A program made the translations under genes and the position numbers. A stretch of DNA of 58,829 nucleotides from a virus. This document shows positions 1 to 58,829 of the stretch, piece after piece. The notes beneath the pieces were generated by a model that was not told the DNA's origin, did not search any database, and saw only the letters and a list, made by a program, of their open reading frames with translations. Location: positions 1 through 58,829 of the IMG/VR virus record IMGVR_UViG_3300045988_093898; one strand, 5' to 3'. Each line of letters opens with the position of its first letter. The first letter of the stretch is position 1.

Positions 1-47
1 GATTTATGCCAATGGGAAATGGCAGAAGAAAGTATGTGTCATTGATT
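1..47. repeat. Terminal direct repeat identical to 58783..58829 (assembly overlap of a circular or circularly permuted genome; unit length 58782 bp)
   Basis: Read directly: gatttatgccaatgggaaatggcagaagaaagtatgtgtcattgatt occurs at both ends. An ORF starting at 58727 continues in frame into 2..187. Confidence 0.95.
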
Positions 48-3285: not shown

Positions 3286-3909
3286 ATGAGTAAAATAGAA
3301 GCAGAACTTGACGGTATAGAAACTGAATATGACCCGAATTATGGAAGTCGTGGCAGACGTGGGACATATTTGTATAAAATACCATGTGCTATATGTGGGA
3401 AAATAGTAAGAAGAGTTTGTTATACTAGGACAATTACATATTTATGTGATTATTGTAAAACAACGATAAGAAAGAAAAAAGAAATATCAAAAGAACTTTT
3501 GGAAGTGAAAACTCCGAAAGAAAAACAATTTGATAAGGCGGTAAACAAAATTAAAAAACAAGTTTTTGATTTTAGTTTGTACGAAAAAGCAATTAAAATT
3601 GCAGAAATAAGACAAGAATTATACGGCAGTATTCCAGAAGCGATGGTTGCAATCGAATTGCTGAGGTTGGGATACAGCATAATACCTCAGCAAAAGATAA
3701 AGAAATATAAAGTTGACTTTGCTATTCCAAAAGAAAAGATTATTATAGAAGTAGACGGCTCGTTGTATCATAAAGATGTATATAAAGGAGAAAGAGAAGC
3801 TATAATACAATTATCTTTAGGGCTTGACTGGAAAATCATTCATGTTCCAGCAGAAAAAATAGCAGAAAATATTACTAAACTGAAACAAGTCATAGAAGTT
3901 TTGAAATAA
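3286..3909 (+). CDS. zinc-ribbon + DUF559/Vsr-like (restriction-endonuclease fold) endonuclease domain protein
   Basis: N-terminal CxxC...CxxC. C-terminal KVDFAIPKEKIIIEVDGSLYHK ... IHVPAEKI pattern typical of DUF559. Confidence 0.5.
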   Translation: MSKIEAELDGIETEYDPNYGSRGRRGTYLYKIPCAICGKIVRRVCYTRTITYLCDYCKTTIRKKKEISKELLEVKTPKEKQFDKAVNKIKKQVFDFSLYEKAIKIAEIRQELYGSIPEAMVAIELLRLGYSIIPQQKIKKYKVDFAIPKEKIIIEVDGSLYHKDVYKGEREAIIQLSLGLDWKIIHVPAEKIAENITKLKQVIEVLK

Positions 3910-3976
3910 AATAAAATCTTTTCGGTGCGTATCACTTTTTAACAGGCGGTACGCATTTTTTGATGGAGAAAACAGA

Positions 3977-4168
3977 ATGAAAAGCAAAATGATATATTGT
4001 CCTCAATGCAGGCGAAAAGTCGCTACATATGATGGGCGAGCAACGATAAATAAAATTGCAAAATGCAAAAAATGTAATTTACAAGTTATTTATGATGTTG
4101 CAAGGGATGAAACAACAGTTAAGCCGTTACCAAAAAGAGAAACATCTAGCGGTGCTGTTTTATATTAG
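3977..4168 (+). CDS. Com-like zinc-ribbon protein
   Basis: 63 aa. CPQC..(21)..CKKC resembles the phage Mu Com layout. Lies immediately upstream of the portal gene. Confidence 0.4.
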   Translation: MKSKMIYCPQCRRKVATYDGRATINKIAKCKKCNLQVIYDVARDETTVKPLPKRETSSGAVLY

Positions 4169-4176
4169 GAGGGAAT

Positions 4177-5640
4177 ATGCGGAACACAAGACCTCTGAGA
4201 GATATTATAAAAGGAAATTACGGCAGAAAAGTATTATATACTACTGCGGAGACAATAACACAGAACAACATATTAAAGGTTGTCGGTGATGCTATCGGAA
4301 ATTTCTATTATAACAAAACAATAATCGATTATTTGTGGCGATATTACAAAGGCGACCAACCGGTATTGTACAGAACAAAAGTTGCAAATGATGATATTAT
4401 AAACAAAATTGTAGAAAATCATGCATATGAGATAGTGCAATTCAAAGTCGGGCAAACTTATGGGGAGCCGGTACAGTTTGTGAGTAGAAAAGATGATGAT
4501 GCCGTAAATAATGCTGTTGATGAACTTAACGACTATATGTCAGATGCAAATAAACAAGAAAAAGACATTAAGTCGGGTGAATGGCAGTCGGCAACAGGAA
4601 CATCATTCAAAGCGTTACAGTTTTCAGATGGCGACATACCATTCAGAATTGTGTGTCCTACACCCATAAATACTTTTGTAGTTTATAATTTAAGTACAGA
4701 AGAACCCATGCTTGCAGTACAAGAATTAAAGGACTTTGAGGGCAATTATTACAAGTTGTGCTACACAGATACAAGTTCATGTATCATTAGAGATGGTGTT
4801 GTATCTGACTGGAAACTACATGGTTTTGGAAGTATTCCTATCGTTGAGTTTCCAAACAATCACGAAAGATTGTCTGATATTGAAATTGTTATTGATATGT
4901 TAGATGCAATTAACAATATGCAGTCTAACAGAATGGATGGAGTTGAACAGTTTGTTCAGTATTGGGTTAAGTTTATAAATTGCGAGATTGACGAAGAAAC
5001 ATTTGCAAAAATGAAAGAAAGCCATGCACTTGCGGTCAAATCAATCAATAAAGACAATAAATCAGATGTTGACATTATGACGCAAGAACTTAATCAAACA
5101 CAATGTCAAGTTGCGAAAGATGACTTGTGGGACAATACATTATCCATTTTGGCTATACCGAACAAAAATAACAATAACAGCGGCGGCGATACGCAAGGGG
5201 CTGTACAGCTAAGAAATGGATGGGACTTTTCTAAAACTAGAGCAAAGTTAAAAGACCCGATTGTTAAGTCAGCAGAAAAACGGCTTGCTAAAGTAGCTTT
5301 AAATATTATTCGTATTAAAGACCACGATTTAGGTATAACCTTAAGAGATTTTGATGTGCAGATAAATCACAGTCCACAGGATAATATGTACACTAAGGCT
5401 CAGACATTGTTACAGCTTTTACAGTGCGGTATACATCCACTTATAGCCATTAAAACTGTAGGATTGTGGGGAGATGCAGAAAAGACATTCTTGCTATCAC
5501 AGCCATACATTGATAATTTATGGAAAACTATTGATGATGTAGAAGCACAGGAACAAAAAGCACAAGAGATAATGCAACAAATGAACAGTAACAATGAAGT
5601 AAATAATGATAATAACAAAAATGAAGCAGTTATCGAGTAA
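4177..5640 (+). CDS. portal protein (SPP1 gp6-like)
   Basis: 487 aa. Position after the terminase region and before the scaffold; acidic N/Q-rich C-terminus. Confidence 0.82.
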   Translation: MRNTRPLRDIIKGNYGRKVLYTTAETITQNNILKVVGDAIGNFYYNKTIIDYLWRYYKGDQPVLYRTKVANDDIINKIVENHAYEIVQFKVGQTYGEPVQFVSRKDDDAVNNAVDELNDYMSDANKQEKDIKSGEWQSATGTSFKALQFSDGDIPFRIVCPTPINTFVVYNLSTEEPMLAVQELKDFEGNYYKLCYTDTSSCIIRDGVVSDWKLHGFGSIPIVEFPNNHERLSDIEIVIDMLDAINNMQSNRMDGVEQFVQYWVKFINCEIDEETFAKMKESHALAVKSINKDNKSDVDIMTQELNQTQCQVAKDDLWDNTLSILAIPNKNNNNSGGDTQGAVQLRNGWDFSKTRAKLKDPIVKSAEKRLAKVALNIIRIKDHDLGITLRDFDVQINHSPQDNMYTKAQTLLQLLQCGIHPLIAIKTVGLWGDAEKTFLLSQPYIDNLWKTIDDVEAQEQKAQEIMQQMNSNNEVNNDNNKNEAVIE

Positions 5641-16200: not shown

Positions 16201-18263
16201 GATGGCAAGAACTTGGAAAAAGTTTAAGTGATGGCATAAAAGGCATTGCAGATACATTAACTACAGCTTTAAAAAAGGTGAAGTGGGAGAAAGTCGGTCA
16301 AAGTATTGGAGATTTTATCTCAGCTATTGATTTTGGCAAGGTTACTTGGAGCTTATTAGGTTTAGCAAAAGCGTTGGTCAGTGCGATAGGCTCAGCTCTC
16401 AAAGGTTCATTTTCAAAAGCACCTATTGAGACAGGTTTATTGGCGGCATTTGCATTGGTAAAATACACTGGTATAGGAAAGTTTATTGCTGGCGAAGTTT
16501 CTAAGAAAATGGCGGCTTTTTTAGCTGAAAAAATGGGTTTTGAAATCGCAAAAGACGCAGGAATAAGCACAGCCATCAAAACAGGGCTTAAAGGGCTTAT
16601 AGCAAAAGCAGGCTTAACAAGTTTAAGTGTTTCAGTAGGTGTAGTTGGGATAGCTGCGGCAACAGCGGCGTTGGTAACTTTCTATAACTATGTAGAAAGC
16701 AAAGCTGATGAAAAAATAAAGTTAGATATATCAGAAGCTAATAAGGCATTAGGTGACTTAAATTCATCAGCGAAAGAATGTGAAAAAGCGGTCAACAAAA
16801 CTAAAGATGCTTTAAAGAAAGTTGAAGCAAGAGACGAAAATGCTCAAAAAAAGGGAAAAGACCTTGAAGTATTAGCAAATGCTTATTATAAATTATCGAA
16901 AAAAGTTAATAAAACCAAAGGTGAACAAGAAACTTTAAAGAGAATGTCGAAAGAGCTTTCAAAACAAATGCCCGGACTTAAAAAGAATATCGACAAAGAA
17001 ACTGGAGCGTATAAAGGAAGTTATAAACAGCTTAAAAAACTTGTTGAAAAAACGAAAGAGTATTACAAAGCGAAAGCTGCGCAAAAAGACCTTGAAGATA
17101 TTGGAAAAAAACTTTATGAAAACGAAAAGGATTTAGCAAAAGCGGCAAATGATGCAAAGAAAGCGGAAGCTATATTAAAGAACGAAAGAATAAATCTTGT
17201 AAATCAGACAAAAAGATTAAATGAACTTGAAGAAAAAAACTTAAAATGGAAAAGTGGCTCAGCTTCAATGACCAAATCCGAATATACGGAAATGGAAAAA
17301 TTGCGTACAGAAGTGCCGAAACTTGCACAAAAATTACAAGACCAAGAAAAAGTTTATAAAAACCACAAAAAGGAACTTGGGGCACTTAAAGACACACAAC
17401 AAGAACTCAATGAAAAGTATAATACAGCTTCTGACTATGTAGAGAAATATACAAAAAAGGTAGACAGTAATACTACTAGCACCAATAAGCAAAAAGACGC
17501 TATAAAAGGTGTTGGGGAAGAAACCGATAAATTGTCAGGCAAAAAAGCTACTGTATCTATAAATTCCAAAGGAGTTGAAAAGACTAAAAAAGATATTGAC
17601 GGTATAACGAGTAAAAAAGTTAAAGTTACCGCAAATGCCAAAAAAGGTAAAAATTTTGATAAAACAAAAAAGGATTATGACGATTTTAAGACTAAAAATG
17701 CAAATATAAAGCTAAATGTAAAAAATGCAGACAAGTTAAAGGAAGTTGTGAAAAATCCGTTGCTAACCGATATAGGTAAGAAAAGCACAATAAAAAGGAA
17801 TGTAGAGATTACTTTTAAGATGAAAAACAATTTCACTGACAATCTCTCTGATTTTTTAAATAAAATTTCGACTGGAAGCAAACCTAAAAAGAAAGCAAAA
17901 GGCGGTATCTTTGAAAACGGCTCATGGCATAACATAGCTAAGTATGCAAGCGGCGGTATGCCGAACATGGGGCAGTTATTTGTAGCAAGAGAAAAAGGTC
18001 CTGAGCTTGTAAGTACATTAAAAGGTCATACTGCGGTTATGAACAATGACCAAATAGTTGCGTCGGTATCTCAAGGTGTGTCAGATGCGGTATATAATGT
18101 TATGACACCTGTTTTAACAAGTCTTGTAACAAGTATAAACCGCATGAATAGTAGCGGCACTCCTTTGTATGTCGAGGGTGTTTCTGAGGGCGATATAGTT
18201 AAGATAACACAGAATGCTAATGCTGATTACAAGAAGCGGTATGGCAAACCTCTTTTCACTTAG
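13296..18263 (+). CDS. tape measure protein
   Basis: 1655 aa, coiled-coil rich with central hydrophobic segments, positioned after the chaperones. Confidence 0.9.
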   Translation: MMELDSLELKVSAEAQSAEKALDSLIGKLQSFSEALGGINTTSISKNLENLAKVGGLKTITKEVEDLGKTVDNVGKKKTKTEVKVDVKQGLEAIKELQSKFSNIGKGTQFNGNLSSLEKEYDKLSAKLDKLAEREQKALAIGTASTNDKAFQSLQYDIANTINKLAELETKIQSVKNQNTSQTANIPIFRWDNQNTGSTQNITENIEKSLKSIPETAKYSVEQAQKSLNEAISKVQNAQTNVEDFSQRISQARANLKNVEVSGKGMGTDEWDRAYIALQKVVSEAKQYKAALNERATGINTDISETDSLDTKVNKLREDLKQLKADGFGFGDTTFDKTYQQLNQAEKELAEYKARLTESETSTRSFSSTLKSAATGFSNFISKIKNAGAATLNFAKNVRNMKSPLKLALGQISKLGNSVARLYFKYMMLSRVAGALGKVLGISSDYVEEYNYFQKAIDKIAQENKGNYKKYGYDNAKSYADSFEDRLTTLTGKMTGYKPDKNGNLIDTDTASLGLDITQVTNFEAQIAQMTNSVGMMGEASIATSKAMTMLAGDMSSLTNMPLDTVMKNFSSGLSGAAMAVKKYGMDISVAALQETALGLGVKKNVSDMTQAEKEYLRVITMLQQSKVAWGDLADTINQPANQFRMLKSNIKQCGLMLSRLFMPVIQKVLPWLNAMAMAVKDLMKHIGDLFGLKFDSSLGSTGSDTSDTYDDVSDSADNAADSINDAADAQKKFNKQLQGFDKLNNLTTNETSKKDSDKDKNGTGNVSGVLSDALINAVEDYEKRWNKAFKSMTSDADNLKEKIEKLFTTAWDTGDGTEIGEALATTLNKGIDWVNNNTDKWTKGLKKITSIMGTSLNGFVKKFKWDGLGKAVGNSIKGVLEAETNFFKKVNWVNLGKGLSSTLNSAIKTGVLQSYFKSMASKLRAAIETAFGAITTFDFKGLGNALGQGINDFFKTMNKKNKQTGLNGWQELGKSLSDGIKGIADTLTTALKKVKWEKVGQSIGDFISAIDFGKVTWSLLGLAKALVSAIGSALKGSFSKAPIETGLLAAFALVKYTGIGKFIAGEVSKKMAAFLAEKMGFEIAKDAGISTAIKTGLKGLIAKAGLTSLSVSVGVVGIAAATAALVTFYNYVESKADEKIKLDISEANKALGDLNSSAKECEKAVNKTKDALKKVEARDENAQKKGKDLEVLANAYYKLSKKVNKTKGEQETLKRMSKELSKQMPGLKKNIDKETGAYKGSYKQLKKLVEKTKEYYKAKAAQKDLEDIGKKLYENEKDLAKAANDAKKAEAILKNERINLVNQTKRLNELEEKNLKWKSGSASMTKSEYTEMEKLRTEVPKLAQKLQDQEKVYKNHKKELGALKDTQQELNEKYNTASDYVEKYTKKVDSNTTSTNKQKDAIKGVGEETDKLSGKKATVSINSKGVEKTKKDIDGITSKKVKVTANAKKGKNFDKTKKDYDDFKTKNANIKLNVKNADKLKEVVKNPLLTDIGKKSTIKRNVEITFKMKNNFTDNLSDFLNKISTGSKPKKKAKGGIFENGSWHNIAKYASGGMPNMGQLFVAREKGPELVSTLKGHTAVMNNDQIVASVSQGVSDAVYNVMTPVLTSLVTSINRMNSSGTPLYVEGVSEGDIVKITQNANADYKKRYGKPLFT

Positions 18264-46061: not shown

Positions 46062-46715
46062 ATGGCTAGAAACAGTTTGTACAATGACTTGACAGGTATG
46101 AAATTTGGTGCACTAAAAGTATTAAAAAGGCACGAAGGGAAAACCGATATTTCAAAATCTTGTTACTGGATTTGTCAATGCGATTGTGGAAATATTGTAA
46201 GCAGAAGGACATCGACATTAAAAAGGGCAAGTAAAGGCTCAATCCCTAATTGTGGTTGCTTAAATGCAAAAAGACTAAGGAAGTGTTCCTTATCAATGAA
46301 AAAACACGGCATGTCTAAAACAAGAATTTTTGGAATTTGGGAGAATATGCGCGACAGATGCAATAATCCTAATTCAAAGCTGTATTATTTGTATGGCGAG
46401 CGTGGAATTAAAGTTTGTGAGGAATGGTCAAATGATTTTTTGACTTTTTACAATTGGTCTATCAAGAACGGGTATAGGCAAGGATTATCCATTGACCGAA
46501 TAGATGTAAATGGAAACTATGAACCTAACAATTGTAGGTGGGCTACTGCAAAACAACAAATAAGAAACAGAAGAAATACGGTTTATGTCAATATAGGCGG
46601 CGTGAAAAAAACTTTAGGTGAACTTTCAGAAGAATATAACATTAAATACAACACCCTTTATGATAGGTATAGAAGACATAAAGGAGCATCGGATTTTAGC
46701 GATATAATTAAATAG
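46062..46715 (+). CDS. HNH (HNH_3-type) homing-endonuclease-like protein
   Basis: LSIDRIDVNGNYEPNNCRWATAKQQIRNRRNT and an N-terminal Cys cluster. Confidence 0.6.
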   Translation: MARNSLYNDLTGMKFGALKVLKRHEGKTDISKSCYWICQCDCGNIVSRRTSTLKRASKGSIPNCGCLNAKRLRKCSLSMKKHGMSKTRIFGIWENMRDRCNNPNSKLYYLYGERGIKVCEEWSNDFLTFYNWSIKNGYRQGLSIDRIDVNGNYEPNNCRWATAKQQIRNRRNTVYVNIGGVKKTLGELSEEYNIKYNTLYDRYRRHKGASDFSDIIK

Positions 46716-46728
46716 GAGGCTTGATGAT

Positions 46729-47382
46729 ATGCACAAATGGGCTAAACAGATAATGGAATGCGTCAAGGCTAAGGTTGACGGAATTGGAATTGACAATTTT
46801 GAGGGGCAGAACCTTGACGATTTAAAGGATTTTACAGAAATAGCGAAGAACATAGCTTGTTTTGACAAAGATTACAGAATTGTTGAAGCTATGGAAAAGG
46901 CAGAAGATAACGAGGATATTATGCGTATGCTTGAACAGTACGAAGATTATCCAGACAGAAGATATTATGACGCTTACCGCTATGCAAACGGCAGATTCGC
47001 CCCAAAAGGTCGTGGAACACGCAGAGGATATGAAGAACCGCCTTATTATCATATGTACCCAGAAGCAGAGCATATGAGGGACATGGATAGGGATGATAGA
47101 GGAAAGATGTATTACAGCGAACCTGCAAGCAATGCGAATGGTAGCAATAATATGTCAAGAAGCTACTCTGAAAGCAACTATGACAGGGCAAAGCGCAATT
47201 ATACAGAAACAAAAGAGTTACACAAAGGGAACACTCAGGAAGATAAAGAGCATAAGATGAAATCCCTTGACGGCTACATGAAAGAGTTGTCAACAGATAT
47301 TACACACTTGCTCGGCGACATGACCGCAGAAGAGAAAAATCTTTTAAGAACAAAACTTAGTACGCTTGTTTCTAAGATTTGA
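46729..47382 (+). CDS. hypothetical Y/R/D-rich protein (217 aa)
   Basis: ORF track. RBS AGGAGG. Confidence 0.5.
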   Translation: MHKWAKQIMECVKAKVDGIGIDNFEGQNLDDLKDFTEIAKNIACFDKDYRIVEAMEKAEDNEDIMRMLEQYEDYPDRRYYDAYRYANGRFAPKGRGTRRGYEEPPYYHMYPEAEHMRDMDRDDRGKMYYSEPASNANGSNNMSRSYSESNYDRAKRNYTETKELHKGNTQEDKEHKMKSLDGYMKELSTDITHLLGDMTAEEKNLLRTKLSTLVSKI

Positions 47383-49099: not shown

Positions 49100-49765
49100 A
49101 TGAGCAGTCCCGAAAATGATTTTATCGTTGTGAACACAAAGGAGGATGTCTTAAAAGAACGGTATATTGCCGGTGCTGATTTAGTCGGCAGATATGGATT
49201 CCCACAATTAACTCCGGTTTATGCACACTTAGAAGATGTTGAGCCGGTACCGTTCAATCTTGTAAGTAAAGAAAAGCATCCGAAAAATTGTGTTTGCCAT
49301 TTTTTTATAGATGATGTACGGTTTGAACGACTTTGGAACAATCCAAGTAAATACATGGATATATTGAAAAACTTTAAATATATATGCAGTCCCGATTTTA
49401 CTTTCTATGATGATATGCCACTTGCATTGAAAATATGGCAAATATACAGAAGTCGGGCATTAAGCTATTGTTTAAGTCAAGCCGGTTTAAAGATTATCCC
49501 GACTGTAGGCTGGGGAAGTGAAGAAACTTTTGATTTTTGTTTTGATGGTTTACCGGCACACTCCACGCTTGCGGTATCGACAAACGGATGTTTTTCTGAG
49601 GATGGGAAAGAATGTTATAGAAAAGGTTTTAAAGAAATGTGCAGGCGATTGGAGCCGATTCAAGTTGTTGTTTTTGGTTCTCAAATTGATGTTGATATAG
49701 ATGTAGATATTGTTTATAAATCGAGCTACTGGCAGCAAATGAGTGAACGACTAAAAAAGAGGTGA
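49100..49765 (+). CDS. DUF4417 domain protein
   Basis: CHFFIDDVRFERLWNNPSKY...SPDFTFYDDMPLALKIWQIYRSRAL...IPTVGW pattern as I recall for DUF4417. Confidence 0.55.
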   Translation: MSSPENDFIVVNTKEDVLKERYIAGADLVGRYGFPQLTPVYAHLEDVEPVPFNLVSKEKHPKNCVCHFFIDDVRFERLWNNPSKYMDILKNFKYICSPDFTFYDDMPLALKIWQIYRSRALSYCLSQAGLKIIPTVGWGSEETFDFCFDGLPAHSTLAVSTNGCFSEDGKECYRKGFKEMCRRLEPIQVVVFGSQIDVDIDVDIVYKSSYWQQMSERLKKR

Positions 49766-49917: not shown

Positions 49918-50019
49918 AGAGCATGTAAAGGCTTTCAAATGTAAAGATAGAAAAAATGAGGGTGAAATGTAAATCTGCTATATAAGAGCGTGAGAATGTT
50001 AAAAAAAGATAATAAAAAA

Positions 50020-50046
50020 GGAACTTGTTAAATGAGTTCCTTTTTT
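50020..50046. terminator. terminator hairpin with an A-run upstream and T-run downstream (could act in both directions)
   Basis: Stem ggaact/agttcc followed by T6. Confidence 0.6.
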
Positions 50047-50164
50047 CGTCCCAATATGGTACTATTAAATTAAATAGAAATAATTAAATATAAATTATTT
50101 TTTACATCCCACTATGTTTCTATTATTTATTGTAAAAATATTATATCAATTTATAACTTTTTCG

Positions 50165-50863
50165 TCAAGATAAAAAAACTGGCGTTTCGCCGTCATAAAG
50201 TTCAGCAAAAACTTTCGTTCCTTTGTCAAGATAGCGGCATCTTATTTTTTCAAAACGCCGAAAACCTTTTTTAGTGTATTCGTATTTTTTGTTTATCAAA
50301 TAAGCTATGCTCGCAATTTTGTTATCAATAAATTGTTCTGGAATATATGCGTTATTTCTTAAAAAACCTATTTTGTTTTTCTTTTCTAATTCTACGACAA
50401 CAATATCATCAACACGAATTAAATCTTCATATCTTCCAAGCGACAAAAAAGTTTTAGGATGTTTTAAAGCGGCGAAAACTTGTTGAAAATCTTCGTCTTG
50501 CGGCTGTATGTATATTTCTAAATTCAAGTCAGATAAAAAGTTGATTTCTTTTATATCTTGGACCCAGCCGACACACTTTCCGTTATTTTCGACGATAATG
50601 TGCCATCTTTTTCTTTGTTCGTCTGTAATTTTTCCGAAATTATAACCACCCTCCCAAATTTTTTGGGTTTCTTGATTAAAAAAACCTTTTCCGGAAACAA
50701 AAAAATTTAAAGGATGGTAACGCTCCCAGCCACAAGCGTGATGAACCATCCCGGAAATAGTAGAAAATGGTGGAAGCGGTAGAATTTCCGGAAATAGTGA
50801 AAAACCATATGGGAACCTTGCAGTTCCCATATACCCCACCATTTTTATAACTTTTAACGCCAT
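50165..50863 (-). CDS. Cas5-like (RAMP) protein, solitary
   Basis: 232 aa. N-terminal GYMGTARFPYGFSLFPEILPLPPFSTISGMVHHACGW and later FLSLGRYEDLIRV resemble Cas5 signature segments. Strong RBS AAGGAGG. Confidence 0.35.
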   Translation of the reverse strand: MALKVIKMVGYMGTARFPYGFSLFPEILPLPPFSTISGMVHHACGWERYHPLNFFVSGKGFFNQETQKIWEGGYNFGKITDEQRKRWHIIVENNGKCVGWVQDIKEINFLSDLNLEIYIQPQDEDFQQVFAALKHPKTFLSLGRYEDLIRVDDIVVVELEKKNKIGFLRNNAYIPEQFIDNKIASIAYLINKKYEYTKKGFRRFEKIRCRYLDKGTKVFAELYDGETPVFLS

Positions 50864-51051
50864 TCTGCTTCCTCCTTAAAGCCTTCTAAAATTGCAGTTG
50901 CAAGCTCGTCAGAAATTTCTTCATCTGCAAGCGGCTTTCTGTTTTCAAAGCCTAATTCGTTATCGAGGCTTGCGTCAATGTCTGCAAGTGCTTTTTCTCT
51001 GCTAAATCCCAACTCCATAATCTCATTTAATAAATCAATAGTTTTTTTCAT
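50854..51051 (-). CDS. small acidic protein (65 aa)
   Basis: Overlaps the Cas5-like start by 10 nt. RBS AAGGTG. Confidence 0.45.
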   Translation of the reverse strand: MKKTIDLLNEIMELGFSREKALADIDASLDNELGFENRKPLADEEISDELATAILEGFKEEAEWR

Positions 51052-51116
51052 AATAGTCACCTTTTAACCTTTCTTTTATTTTTTATAATTATATCTTTTA
51101 TAGTGATGTTTTTCAA

Positions 51117-51344
51117 TCACCAAAAAATTATATTTTTATTGCTGTCAATGTTGTAATGCCACCATTTGCCCGATTGATACATGATGCAGATATTGCCGTC
51201 CGCATCCGTCCAAGTCTTTTTAATACCGCCATGCTCCCACCAGTCAAATTGTGACCGGTGAAAGTTGTAAAAATCTTTTGCAGCTATGCCGTCATACCTC
51301 AGACTTATTCCCTGCAATTTAATTTTTGCCATAAAATTAACCAT
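51117..51344 (-). CDS. W-rich small protein (75 aa)
   Basis: ORF track. Start may be the second ATG. Confidence 0.45.
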   Translation of the reverse strand: MVNFMAKIKLQGISLRYDGIAAKDFYNFHRSQFDWWEHGGIKKTWTDADGNICIMYQSGKWWHYNIDSNKNIIFW

Positions 51345-51359
51345 CCTTTCTACTATTTA

Positions 51360-51566
51360 TTAAATTCCATATATCAAAATTTCAAAAATATCATTTTCGA
51401 TATTTTCAAATTCGACTTTAAAGAACAAGCCGCAATTCAAGTAGTCACATTCCAATGCTCCGAGATGCGAATATCTCCACGGAATGTTGTTTTTTTCAAA
51501 CGCATCTATAGCGTTATCCGCGAAAGTGCCATTCTTCCACTTAACTAAAAGTCCTGTCCTTGCCAT
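51360..51566 (-). CDS. hypothetical protein (68 aa), first gene of the minus-strand operon
   Basis: RBS AGGAGGTG 7 nt upstream. Confidence 0.5.
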   Translation of the reverse strand: MARTGLLVKWKNGTFADNAIDAFEKNNIPWRYSHLGALECDYLNCGLFFKVEFENIENDIFEILIYGI

Positions 51567-51615: not shown

Positions 51616-51644
51616 ATAATAGCATAATGTAAGGCACAAATCAA
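51616..51644 (-). promoter_or_regulatory. minus-strand promoter TTGATT, 17-nt spacer, TATTAT, with a TAAGGCACAA box in the spacer
   Basis: The plus strand reads ataata (51616-21) and aatcaa (51639-44). Confidence 0.45.
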
Positions 51645-51742
51645 TATGCAAATTAACTAAAATATAAGGCACAAAGCAAAATCTTTTTTGTGCAATGTGT
51701 ATAAGGCACAATATACAAAAAGAAACATATATATAGAAAGAG

Positions 51743-51771
51743 TTGACATAAGGCACAAAACAAGCTATCAT
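51743..51771 (+). promoter_or_regulatory. promoter TTGACA, 17-nt spacer, TATCAT, for the RHH gene; a box abuts the -35 element
   Basis: Read directly. Confidence 0.5.
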
Positions 51772-51807
51772 ATATACATATATAAAAAGAAAGCGAGGGC
51801 AAAAAAC

Positions 51808-52008
51808 ATGGAGCAAAAAGAATTAAAGACAAGCGAAGCAAGAAGGAGAGCAATATATAAATATGATGATAAATTCGAGCGGGTCAACTGTAGATTTATA
51901 AAAGGTACAAAAAGCCGCATCGAAAAATTAGGCTATAAAAGCATAAATGATTTCATAAAATTAGCGGTAACTGAAAAGCTGGAACACGATGAAAAAATTT
52001 TAAAATAA
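51808..52008 (+). CDS. ribbon-helix-helix-like regulator (66 aa)
   Basis: ARRRAIYKYDDKFERVNCRFIKGTKSRIEKLGYKSINDFIKLAVTEKL: a beta-strand followed by two helices. Confidence 0.5.
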   Translation: MEQKELKTSEARRRAIYKYDDKFERVNCRFIKGTKSRIEKLGYKSINDFIKLAVTEKLEHDEKILK

Positions 52009-52022
52009 GGCACAAAAAACTA

Positions 52023-52051
52023 TTGACATATAAGGCACAAAGATGTATAAT
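52023..52051 (+). promoter_or_regulatory. consensus promoter TTGACA, 17-nt spacer, TATAAT, with a TAAGGCACAA box in the spacer
   Basis: Read directly. Confidence 0.6.
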
Positions 52052-54932: not shown

Positions 54933-55004
54933 TGGGGCATCGCCAAGAGGTTAAGGCATAGCACTTTGACTGCTACATCATGGGTTCAAATCCCATTGCA
55001 CCAG
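54933..55004 (+). tRNA. tRNA-Gln (anticodon TTG)
   Basis: Manual cloverleaf. Acceptor tggggca/tgcacca (one G-A mismatch). Anticodon arm tagca-cttTTGac-tgcta. T arm atggg-ttcaaat-cccat. No encoded CCA. Confidence 0.8.
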
Positions 55005-55260
55005 TTTGGCAAGATGCCATCTTTGTTTTTCTTCTTGCAAAATTGCGGAGAAAAACTCCTTTCCCACACTAGCGGAATGCTGATTAAAGAGCCATCGCAC
55101 GGCTCGGTGTGGTTGTTCGGGTGTCTATCCCACGATGCCCGAACTTACATACTTTTTCCGTACTGGACTAATGTAGTTCCATTACAACTTTCACACCCAC
55201 CCATAACACACAGGTGCTTGCATACCATCTTAAAAGCCTATACAGAGGTGTATGCAACTT

Positions 55261-55332
55261 TGGCATATAGCTCAGTGGTAGAGCAACAGATTGTTAATCT
55301 GTGGGTCGTAGGTTCGATACCTACTATGCCAG
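55261..55332 (+). tRNA. tRNA-Asn (anticodon GTT)
   Basis: Manual cloverleaf. Acceptor tggcata/tatgcca. D arm gctc-agtggta-gagc. Anticodon arm acaga-ttGTTaa-tctgt. T arm gtagg-ttcgata-cctac. Confidence 0.88.
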
Positions 55333-55525
55333 TTATGTCAACACTTGTGCAGAAACCAATGTCGGCAATGGAAGAACAGAAACTAGCTGTTGACATTATC
55401 AATTTGCTCTCGACAAACGTCATTAGGGACGGTTCGAGAACGGTATAACAAAGTCCGTATGAATTATACAAATATAGCAACAAAAATAATTCAATCCGTA
55501 AGTAGATGCTATGAACTTACGGTTT

Positions 55526-57012: not shown

Positions 57013-57231
57013 ATGTGTAAGTTTTGCGAAAACATAGGAATAGGACTTCCAGATTGGAATTTCTTACCAGAAGAAGATTTTGACATAGTTCCTAGTGGAA
57101 TTAAAATAGAAATACGAAAAATAACAGATAATAACGCACTTGTTTTTACTAACAGTGCAGGTGAATACGGAGCAGGAGCATTAAATATCAACTATTGCCC
57201 TATGTGTGGCAAAAAACTGAGCGAGGACTAA
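57013..57231 (+). CDS. zinc-ribbon small protein, tandem paralog 1
   Basis: MCKFCENIGIGLPDWNF...NYCPMCGKKL. Confidence 0.5.
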   Translation: MCKFCENIGIGLPDWNFLPEEDFDIVPSGIKIEIRKITDNNALVFTNSAGEYGAGALNINYCPMCGKKLSED

Positions 57232-57233
57232 GT

Positions 57234-57446
57234 ATGTGTGAATTTTGTGAAGATATAGGAATTGGCATACCAAAATGGGACTTCTACAACGAAAAATCTC
57301 CGAATTATTCTGGAATTGCTATTGAGATACGCAACATTACTAATAGCCCGGGCTTAGTATTTACAAATTCTGCTGATGAATACGGAAGTGGGTATATAAA
57401 AATCAATTATTGCCCTATCTGCGGTAGAAAGTTGGTGGAAGAATGA
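57234..57446 (+). CDS. zinc-ribbon small protein, tandem paralog 2
   Basis: MCEFCEDIGIGIPKWDF...NYCPICGRKL. Confidence 0.5.
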   Translation: MCEFCEDIGIGIPKWDFYNEKSPNYSGIAIEIRNITNSPGLVFTNSADEYGSGYIKINYCPICGRKLVEE

Positions 57447-58746: not shown

Positions 58747-58829
58747 AATAATCATTAAAACAAGAGCTGGCGGTTACACAAAGATTTATGCCAATGGGAA
58801 ATGGCAGAAGAAAGTATGTGTCATTGATT
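58727..58829 (+). CDS. 5' part of the junction-spanning small basic protein gene (continues at 48..187 of the circular map)
   Basis: AAGGAG 9 nt upstream of ATG 58727. The frame is open to the end of the window. Confidence 0.55.
   Translation, partial: MKKSRSKIIIKTRAGGYTKIYANGKWQKKVCVID
58783..58829. repeat. Terminal direct repeat identical to 1..47
   Basis: Exact 47/47 identity, read directly. Confidence 0.95.

Follow-up and report, generated by a model that had tools for sequence, protein, structure and literature searches.

The subject of this analysis is a window of 58,829 nucleotides (nt), the whole of the IMG/VR virus record IMGVR_UViG_3300045988_093898, and within it a small locus on the minus strand. 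Here, a protein of 232 amino acids (aa) derived from the Cascade subunit Cas5b, named vCas5 (50165-50863), is encoded directly upstream of a gene for an RNA that resembles a CRISPR RNA (crRNA; 50014-50168, same strand). We moderately favour the view that the locus is a compound anti-CRISPR module directed against the type I-B system of the host. CreR is a cas-regulating, crRNA-like RNA of hosts (bioRxiv 10.1101/2023.03.10.532045), and the Cracrs are viral mimics of CreR/CreA, through which Cas effectors are redirected to the repression of cas or toxin promoters (bioRxiv 10.1101/2024.10.29.618823). The RNA of the window would be a Cracr-type hijacker of the host autorepression circuit, a reading for which the sequence-level support is strong; the role of vCas5 is less certain. 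Two recent anti-CRISPR strategies, namely, Cas-subunit-derived proteins and CreR-mimic RNAs, would be joined here in one conserved unit that is plentiful among the phages, prophages and conjugative elements of Lachnospiraceae from the human gut.

vCas5 and the RNA gene beside it

The 232-aa product had been singled out in a first-pass annotation of the window for its Cas5 motifs, which are present as quoted there. Through profile searches, it was found that TIGR01895 (Cas5b/Cas5t) matches vCas5 with an E-value of 6.2e-18, residues 4-220 being aligned to profile positions 2-207 of 217, at a score of 65.2 bits that lies below the curated cut-off of 96.7. The PADLOC Cas5b models match it at E 1.6e-18 and Pfam Cas_Cas5d marginally (18.4 bits, cut-off 23). 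A profile search of the PDB sequences yielded just a weak N-terminal match to the Cas5 of a type I-B CRISPR-associated transposon (CAST). The AlphaFold2 (AF2) model, built on 106 homologues, has a predicted local distance difference test score (pLDDT) of 93.4 and a predicted template modelling score (pTM) of 0.87. When the PDB was searched with it in Foldseek, the best matches were the Cas5 chains of I-E, I-B, I-A and I-C Cascades, with E-values down to 4e-7, and the first 22 matches are Cas5 chains or Cas proteins, with template modelling (TM) scores of 0.5-0.61. The core motifs PLPPFST..G..H..C and SLG..D are kept. As the annotation had supposed, vCas5 is a true Cas5b homologue of the repeat-associated mysterious protein (RAMP) type with a Cas5 fold, and not a chance resemblance. 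The statement that no other cas gene is present also stood: hidden Markov models (HMMs) of seven cas genes (cas6, cas8b, cas7, cas3, cas4, cas1 and cas2), built locally from 78 I-B operons, matched nothing else in the window.

The same annotation had described the gene as a solitary Cascade subunit in a genome with no repeat array, and here it has to be corrected. The window holds no canonical CRISPR array, yet vCas5 is followed immediately downstream by two type I-B repeats, the first full and the second truncated (E 1.1e-6 and 0.0016), and the crRNA-like RNA gene that contains them adjoins vCas5 not only here but in 88 of 92 related loci.

The RNA gene has a predicted promoter of its own at 50140-50168 (TTGACG-17-TATAAT with TG, 11/12 consensus matches), the -35 element of which overlaps the vCas5 stop codon; comparable consensus promoters stand before the RNA in the related loci L015, L103, L112 and L181. 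The full repeat-like unit, TAAATAATAGAAACATAGTGGGATGTAAAA, follows on the minus strand at 50100-50129. It was located with a sequence-only repeat model (R1) made from 23 host I-B repeats, whose best match in the whole window covers 50101-50126 (25.2 bits, model positions 4-29). The last 8 nt of this repeat, ATGTAAAA (50100-50107), would form the 5' handle. Two repeats are identical to the unit at 26 of 30 positions, one from Lachnospira eligens and the other a variant of the host contig L221. Next comes an AT-rich pseudo-spacer of 28 nt, AATAATTTATATTTAATTATTTCTATTT (50072-50099), and then the truncated second repeat (50042-50071), matched by the model at 50051-50069 (positions 3-21); the third-best match in the window has an E-value of 0.33. 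The match to the second repeat stops at ..TGGGA, where Cas6 would be expected to cut, with 8 nt of the repeat still to come. A putative intrinsic terminator, with a 12-bp hairpin and a U-run, closes the gene at 50014-50046. The fold of 50005-50134 has a minimum free energy of -25.2 kcal/mol (z -3.56), and the hairpin and T-run are positionally conserved in relatives. No Rfam family was matched on the RNA.

The viral pseudo-spacers measure 16-28 nt, as against 32-40 nt for 840 host spacers. They are conserved within subclades and hence are not acquired spacers, and in both respects the window unit, with its 28 nt, differs from a canonical array. No target of the pseudo-spacer was found inside the phage genome, where the longest matches are 12 nt.

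The linkage of RNA and protein was followed across the 92 related loci (679 kb). All 99 matches of the repeat model (99/99) lie on the strand of vCas5, and all but one adjoin its gene. With a position weight matrix (PWM), 85 of 89 loci were positive, the background being 0.03 matches per 800 nt. Two of the four loci negative with the repeat model are Listeria loci for AcrIB3, a Cas5 homologue to which we return below; in the other two, L156 and L161, the unit is present with a 3-nt deletion. The truncation of the second repeat recurs in all related loci. The RNA lies directly downstream of vCas5 in the window type, L015, the conjugative elements, the Eisenbergiella loci (3-5 units, pseudo-spacers of 16-18 nt), L008, L098 and L181-184, and directly upstream, between promoter and vCas5 start codon, in a large subclade of about 40% identity. 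In the Eisenbergiella metagenome-assembled genome (MAG) DXHY01, the vCas5-linked mini-array (L018, 2153-2370) has five units, and its 16-18-nt pseudo-spacers resemble each other; the same MAG has a complete I-B operon on another contig (L037).

The upstream position brings in a cis-acting explanation, in which the repeat-like RNA is an autoregulatory mimic and vCas5 binds the handle in its own transcript, that is, in the leader of most relatives and in the 3' region here. Indeed, the unit and terminator hairpin are placed between promoter and vCas5 start codon in 78 of 89 loci. We nevertheless regard this as very unlikely, since the window-type RNA lies downstream with its own promoter, arrays of several units occur (L018), host promoters are matched by the seeds, and the RNA persists without vCas5 in the phage contig L226.

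The identical vCas5 protein is found on about 10 gut-metagenome phage contigs of 50-59 kb. Homologues with 55-78% identity are encoded by phages and by conjugative elements (with relaxase and coupling protein), and those with 32-40% identity by other phages and prophages. A total of 222 IMG/VR contigs encode a vCas5 relative, and individual protein clusters exceed 1,000 members. In a scan of one genome per GTDB species, 80 loci were recovered with identity to vCas5 of up to 37%, and 78 of them lie inside cas6-cas8b-cas7-cas5-cas3-cas4-cas1-cas2 operons; the exceptions, L017 and L018, are Eisenbergiella MAGs. The operon-encoded Cas5b proteins share 31-37% identity with vCas5. When phages were searched by tblastn, only two Listeria phages were matched, at 28% identity; the matches among plasmids were Listeria 'cas5' genes of the AcrIB3 type and a few true operons.

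A neighbour-joining tree of 93 sequences (200 bootstraps) included the 78 operon proteins. All the non-Listeria orphans form one clade in 200 of 200 bootstraps, apart from the 78 operon-encoded Cas5b, and AcrIB3 and the Listeria plasmid copies join this clade in 94 of 200 (47%). The orphan clade was found only on mobile elements, namely, phages, prophages and conjugative elements. The median ratio of non-synonymous to synonymous substitution rates (dN/dS) is 0.12 over 2,036 pairs, and the orphan genes are under purifying selection.

Residue conservation was compared with 89 operon Cas5b representatives. The orphans retain PLPPFST..G..H..C, G58, R86, G99, P136, SLG, D147, Y173, K192 and R202. 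They have lost the operon-conserved Q12, N16, R18, K19, S22, E26, T68, H87/Q88, G103 and D221, and have gained an invariant W46, G72 and F204 and an insertion at residues 77-84. Separately, the protein P0087 (L099, 8001-8858) is a variant of 285 aa with an acidic C-terminal extension of about 55 aa, and in its subclade (P0073, P0071, P0077) the otherwise invariant SLGR.ED motif is replaced by PSLGEYGDL.

It could still be argued that a captured CRISPR-Cas locus has decayed here to a non-functional remnant, or that the repeat serves integration into CRISPR arrays as an attachment site; the capture of cas genes by phages and their integration into repeats are both possible. This is disfavoured and, in our view, hardly credible. 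The dN/dS of 0.12 and the monophyletic, widespread clade speak against it; cas5 does not stand beside the array in I-B operons; the unit is internal to the integrated prophage L099; and the promoter and terminator are conserved.

Host CreR units and the proposed action of the module

In many host I-B loci, an isolated unit of the same design stands just upstream of cas6, on the opposite strand. Such a divergent CreR-like mini-array, about 70-250 nt upstream of cas6, was observed in L021, L025, L030, L031, L034, L038, L041, L055, L060 and L203. The host pseudo-spacers have 11-16-nt matches, proximal to the protospacer-adjacent motif (PAM), to a CCA- or CCT-flanked site 70-110 nt away. This site overlaps the TTGACA (-35) of the cas6 promoter, and the mismatches fall at positions 6 and 12. 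The isolated host units have what is evidently the CreR architecture, and CreR-type autoregulation with a CCA PAM appears to be common in Lachnospiraceae type I-B loci.

A first, ungapped search with the pseudo-spacers against 79 host loci found nothing. The targets emerged only when the search was anchored on a CCN PAM and every sixth position was skipped, so that 15 paired positions were counted; the background maximum over 61,267 CCN sites is then 12-13. Under these settings, the RNAs of related phages match their hosts' cas promoters at 13-15 of the 15 positions, for example L181 against L032 (15/15), L112 against Lachnospira eligens (14/15) and L008 against L058 (14/15). The I-B arrays of L032 and L035 (Blautia schinkii) hold several spacers against the L181-184 and L008 phages, and that of L058 holds one against L098. 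For the window RNA, the best target among the GTDB representative genomes reached 12/15 (L039), which is unconvincing.

Metagenomes were then scanned with the handle and the first 12 nt of the window pseudo-spacer. Of 120 matches, 116 were noise, and three host contigs were recovered (L203, L221 and L238), which carry cas6-cas8b-cas7-cas5-cas3 with a CreR-like unit on the other strand, some 235 nt ahead of cas6. The CreR-like spacer in all three is the same as the window pseudo-spacer over the first 16 nt. Its host target, CCA followed by AATAAATTATAATTAACAATTGAC, overlaps the -35 element of the predicted TTGACT-16-TATACT promoter of cas6. The host CreR pairs with this target at positions 1-21 except at the flipped positions 6 and 12, and the window RNA pairs at 14 of the 14 non-flipped positions of 1-16 and again at 19-21. 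The window phage is itself a target of such a host: the spacer L203_9883 matches a protospacer in the tape-measure gene at 33 of 35 positions (17770-17804, plus strand, E 9e-10), with a CCG PAM at 17767-17769. The L203-type host system is of subtype I-B, and its Cas5 is 32.6% identical to vCas5.

On this basis, the following course of events is proposed. The RNA would be transcribed from its own promoter, with a primary transcript from near 50133 to near 50014. Host Cas6 would cut the first repeat and leave a crRNA look-alike with an 8-nt 5' handle and a short spacer, the Cas6-dependent product starting with AUGUAAAA. With a seed that copies the host CreR, this RNA would be loaded into host Cascade and, in the promoter of cas6-cas8b-cas7-cas5-cas3, would occupy the CCA-flanked site over the -35; no cleavage would follow. 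The outcome would be that of the Cracr mechanism: shut-down of cas expression and competition with the immune crRNAs. Cas5b binds the 5' handle of the crRNA and, in one structure, contributes a loop to PAM reading; because of this binding, vCas5 presumably occupies the handle, where it would most likely replace the host Cas5. There, it may either favour the assembly of Cascade on the viral RNA or render new complexes harmless, as AcrIB3 does. One option is that vCas5 complexes are harmless for interference, yet promoter binding is spared.

Simple sponging of crRNA handles by the lone subunit, one of the roles that the first-pass annotation had offered, agrees poorly with an RNA that mimics the host CreR and matches the cas promoter; these features point to an autoregulatory hijack. 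The other role, anti-CRISPR action by subunit poisoning, has found a precedent in AcrIB3 (33% identity).

A related explanation makes the RNA a decoy or sponge only, in the manner of the RNA anti-CRISPRs (Racrs): together with vCas5, it would nucleate dead-end mini-Cascades that tie up Cas6, Cas7 and Cas8b, with no promoter targeting. The short pseudo-spacers, the up to five tandem units in L018 and the Racr precedent would suit this. However, the seeds are the same as those of host CreR, their matches to promoter sites beside a PAM are far above the background, and the 5' handle is strictly conserved, unlike that of RacrIF1. Hence, we consider a pure decoy quite unlikely.

Several points also weigh against the compound module that we propose. 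Pairing of the window RNA with the host target fails at position 17, and L203, L221 and L238 are unclassified metagenome contigs. The transcription, start site and Cas6 processing of the RNA and the repression of the cas genes are steps that we infer, as are the binding of vCas5 to the handle and the division of work between protein and RNA. In one type I-B system, spacers of up to 26 nt lead to repression without cleavage, and the 28-nt pseudo-spacer of the window exceeds this switch. In L226 (ERZ779892 NODE-300, 4900-5400), a syntenic sibling phage, the RNA is present at the same place without vCas5 and the acidic protein encoded before it, and two unrelated small open reading frames (ORFs) of 69 and 71 aa stand in their stead; therefore, the RNA does not need the protein. 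The Listeria AcrIB3 loci are in turn without such an RNA, so a Cas5-derived inhibitor can act alone. Moreover, an AcrIB3-like loss of DNA binding would also disable RNA-guided repression, and the two parts would then conflict, unless vCas5 breaks something other than AcrIB3 does.

These observations lead to a more serious, though still unlikely, alternative: two independent inhibitors in a shared anti-defence island. vCas5 would then be a defective subunit of the AcrIB3 type that blocks DNA binding, and the RNA a separate Cracr or sponge, with a joint benefit only via the host feedback loop. That AcrIB3 works alone, that L226 has the RNA without vCas5, and that anti-CRISPR (acr) and RNA anti-CRISPR genes are known to co-localise would all be accounted for. 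The adjacency, by contrast, holds in 88 of 92 loci across 32-100% protein identity, although the RNA has switched the side of the gene. It is tighter than the usual shuffling of acr genes, other small ORFs beside vCas5 being present in just 2-44 of 90 loci, and a Cascade unable to bind DNA would cancel the repressor function of the RNA. Because the linkage is asymmetric, vCas5 being nearly always with the RNA and the RNA of L226 being without vCas5, it is suggested that vCas5, as an add-on, needs the RNA to be of benefit.

A bolder variant of the compound module is an 'orthogonal' Cas5, which we hold to be doubtful. Here, vCas5 would assemble host Cas7, Cas8b and Cas11 on the viral guide to give a private Cascade that binds DNA, does not cleave and silences the cas operon, while the acidic protein would inactivate the complexes of host Cas5. 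If true, this would be a three-part system in which the host effector is rebuilt around a viral subunit and a viral guide.

For the compound module as proposed, in case protein and RNA form one ribonucleoprotein, this would be the first case in which a virus provides a structural subunit as well as a guide and so turns host Cascade to a new purpose. It would then also be easier to see how inhibitors overcome CreR-based feedback.

Neighbouring genes and the phage genome

vCas5 is the last of four co-oriented minus-strand ORFs, found as described in the annotation at 50165-50863, 50854-51060, 51117-51344 and 51360-51566. Their overlap was confirmed for the last two only (10 nt); the others are separated by gaps of 15 and 56 nt. 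The four had also been taken as a single operon, with which their common orientation agrees; on the other hand, a good promoter match (51116-51088; TTGAAA-17-TATAAT, 11/12) lies before the pair of acidic protein and vCas5. The predicted promoter of the whole minus-strand set is at 51616-51644 (TTGATT-17-TATTAT with TG).

The acidic protein is encoded at 50854-51060 (68 aa from GTG) or 50854-51051 (65 aa from the ATG at 51051), and its stop overlaps the vCas5 start by the said 10 nt, so that it appears to be translationally coupled to vCas5. With a pI of 4.2, it merits the label 'acidic' that it had been given, as the 75-aa protein with its 6 Trp does the label 'W-rich'. Its AF2 model is a confident three-helix bundle (pLDDT 94), and no significant fold match was found in the PDB. 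A mimic of Cas11 or the Cas8b C-terminus was considered for it and is disfavoured, given a three-helix bundle without a PDB fold match. A homologue is encoded directly upstream of vCas5 in L015, L018, L008, L098 and L181-184. The family comprises at least 697 clusters, and the gene of an arbitrarily chosen member, P0220, again overlaps the start of a 230-aa Cas5-like gene, which is followed by the RNA. The Trp-rich accessory ORF (51117-51344) is present in 10 of 90 related loci, and the 68-aa accessory ORF (51360-51566) only in close relatives. None of the small ORFs matched a family in Pfam, NCBIfam, PHROG or PADLOC, nor one of the Listeria anti-CRISPRs in Table S2 of Katz et al.

Upstream of the gene set, the operator-like motif TTGTGCCTTA occurs in six exact, co-oriented copies on the minus strand (51630-52040), and exact copies occur nowhere else in the 58.8 kb. 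The copies sit in the -35/-10 spacers of three predicted promoters, one on the minus strand, namely that of the gene set, and two on the plus strand. A 66-aa basic protein, a candidate Aca-like (anti-CRISPR-associated) regulator, is encoded divergently at 51808-52008 on the plus strand. No Pfam match and no helix-turn-helix (HTH) or ribbon-helix-helix profile match was obtained for it. The motif cluster and the gene are conserved together, and the six-copy layout is also seen in L001 and L015. Homologues of the basic protein are encoded beside vCas5 modules in 32 of 90 loci, among them L003, L008 (as the first operon gene) and L017; in other relatives, an HTH_26 gene occupies the equivalent place. 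Cluster and protein would resemble the Aca-type control of an acr operon. As a separate observation, the promoter region of the L098 operon whose last gene is vCas5 contains, ahead of the HTH_26 gene, two copies of the handle-like TTTAATGTAAAA (about 3790-4040).

On the far side of the RNA gene from vCas5 lies a gene for a DUF4417 protein (49100-49765, E 1e-51), a conserved neighbour that is likewise found beside the module in L001, L015, L226 and the phages L181-183, which are unrelated. Two tandem proteins of 217 aa (46062-46715 and 46729-47382), encoded some 3.5 kb from the module, have in common an N-terminal Cys-rich motif, W.C.C.CGN...SCGC. This motif also occurs in adc37, which is the CapR domain of transcriptional anti-CRISPRs of the CasPR type (36% identity over 66 aa), and no AP2 domain was detected in the tandem proteins. 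They may be a further anti-CRISPR gene pair.

The first 47 nt of the window (1-47) and the last (58783-58829) are identical; therefore, the window is a complete, circularly closed and circularly permuted phage genome of about 58,782 bp. Its genes for a terminase, an SPP1-type portal, a major capsid protein, a tape measure of 1,655 aa, a cI-like repressor and a serine recombinase identify the phage as a temperate siphovirus. Almost all the other long ORFs are on the plus strand, as had been remarked of the opposed gene set, and the GC skew is negative only in 50-52 kb. A megablast search of 50,697 phage records gave no match to the locus. By Rfam, two tRNA genes are present elsewhere in the window, at 54933-55004 and 55261-55332 (57.7 and 73.5 bits); a TTG-initiated ORF of 160 aa that overlaps them (54966-55448) is probably spurious. 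There is also a 74-nt direct repeat of 72% identity (57142-57215 and 57357-57430, 215 nt apart). Each copy closes with a coding motif of the CPxCG type, suggestive of a pair of small, paralogous zinc-ribbon ORFs.

Comparison with known systems

The closest known protein is AcrIB3, a Cas5 homologue from Listeria mobile elements, which blocks type I-B immunity by assembling into Cascade, and homologues of which were reported only from Listeria (bioRxiv 10.1101/2023.06.24.545427). AcrIB3 is also the only characterised family of Cas5b homologues encoded outside cas operons. Both AcrIB3 and vCas5 are full-length Cas5b homologues outside the cas operon on a mobile element, and they are 33% identical (E 2e-36). 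The clade of vCas5 is nevertheless a separate one, with the full bootstrap support given above, and AcrIB3 joins it with a support of just 47%. AcrIB3 keeps N16, R18, S22, E26 and H87/Q88, which the window clade has lost, and its loci are without the adjacent repeat-like RNA. According to a later review, AcrIB3 displaces Cas5, lacks an 18-residue Cas8b hook and has an extra loop that contacts Cas7 (PMC13131331). The segment from Y173 to the next strand, which may correspond to the hook, is shorter than in operon Cas5b by about 5 aa in the window clade and by about 8 aa in AcrIB3. Operon-encoded Cas5b and vCas5 are alike in fold, core motifs and approximate length; vCas5 differs in scoring below the family cut-off, in lying outside a cas operon, in the conserved residues that it has lost and in the 77-84 insertion.

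Orphan viral genes of the same family have been catalogued before. In Table S3 of Katz et al., IMGVR_UViG_3300045988_105414 is listed as 'cas5, CAS-I-B, host Lachnospiraceae', along with about 20 other I-B cas5 entries from Lachnospiraceae phages (bioRxiv 10.1101/2023.06.24.545427), and we find that this record encodes a homologue 58% identical to vCas5. The catalogue deals with genes only, its entries are untested, and the preprint makes no mention of a repeat-like RNA.

On the RNA side, the window RNA resembles the Cracrs in being a degenerate phage mini-array outside a CRISPR-Cas locus, in having 16 nt in common with a host CreR, where the published criterion is at least 9 PAM-proximal nt in common with the host CreR spacer (bioRxiv 10.1101/2024.10.29.618823), and in its partial complementarity to a PAM-flanked site in the cas promoter. 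Multi-unit 'Cracr arrays' are paralleled in relatives of the window such as L018. The same study reports that Cracrs cooperate with co-encoded Acr proteins. The Cracrs tested there belong to types V-A, I-E and I-F, type I-B being only predicted; the term 'Cas5' never occurs, and hits next to cas genes were discarded by the pipeline (bioRxiv 10.1101/2024.10.29.618823). The Racrs and solitary repeat units were described as not associated with cas genes, and RacrIF1, which has no 5' handle, excludes Cas5 and Cas8 (PMC10651486). They share with the window RNA that a viral repeat mimic stands directly downstream of a promoter and is co-located with acr genes. Unlike them, the window RNA has a conserved handle, a spacer-like seed and an adjacent Cas5 homologue.

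The first-pass annotation had finally held open that the gene is part of something new. This applies to the combination, and not to an orphan viral cas5 or a CreR mimic as such, both of which had been described. In the literature searched, no pairing of a Cas5-like gene with a CreR-mimic RNA and a coupled acidic protein was encountered. Published pipelines, whether directed at orphan cas genes or at Cracrs with cas-adjacent hits discarded, could miss such a combination. Each component is of a known kind; what would be new is the conserved pairing of the two, together with the coupled acidic protein.

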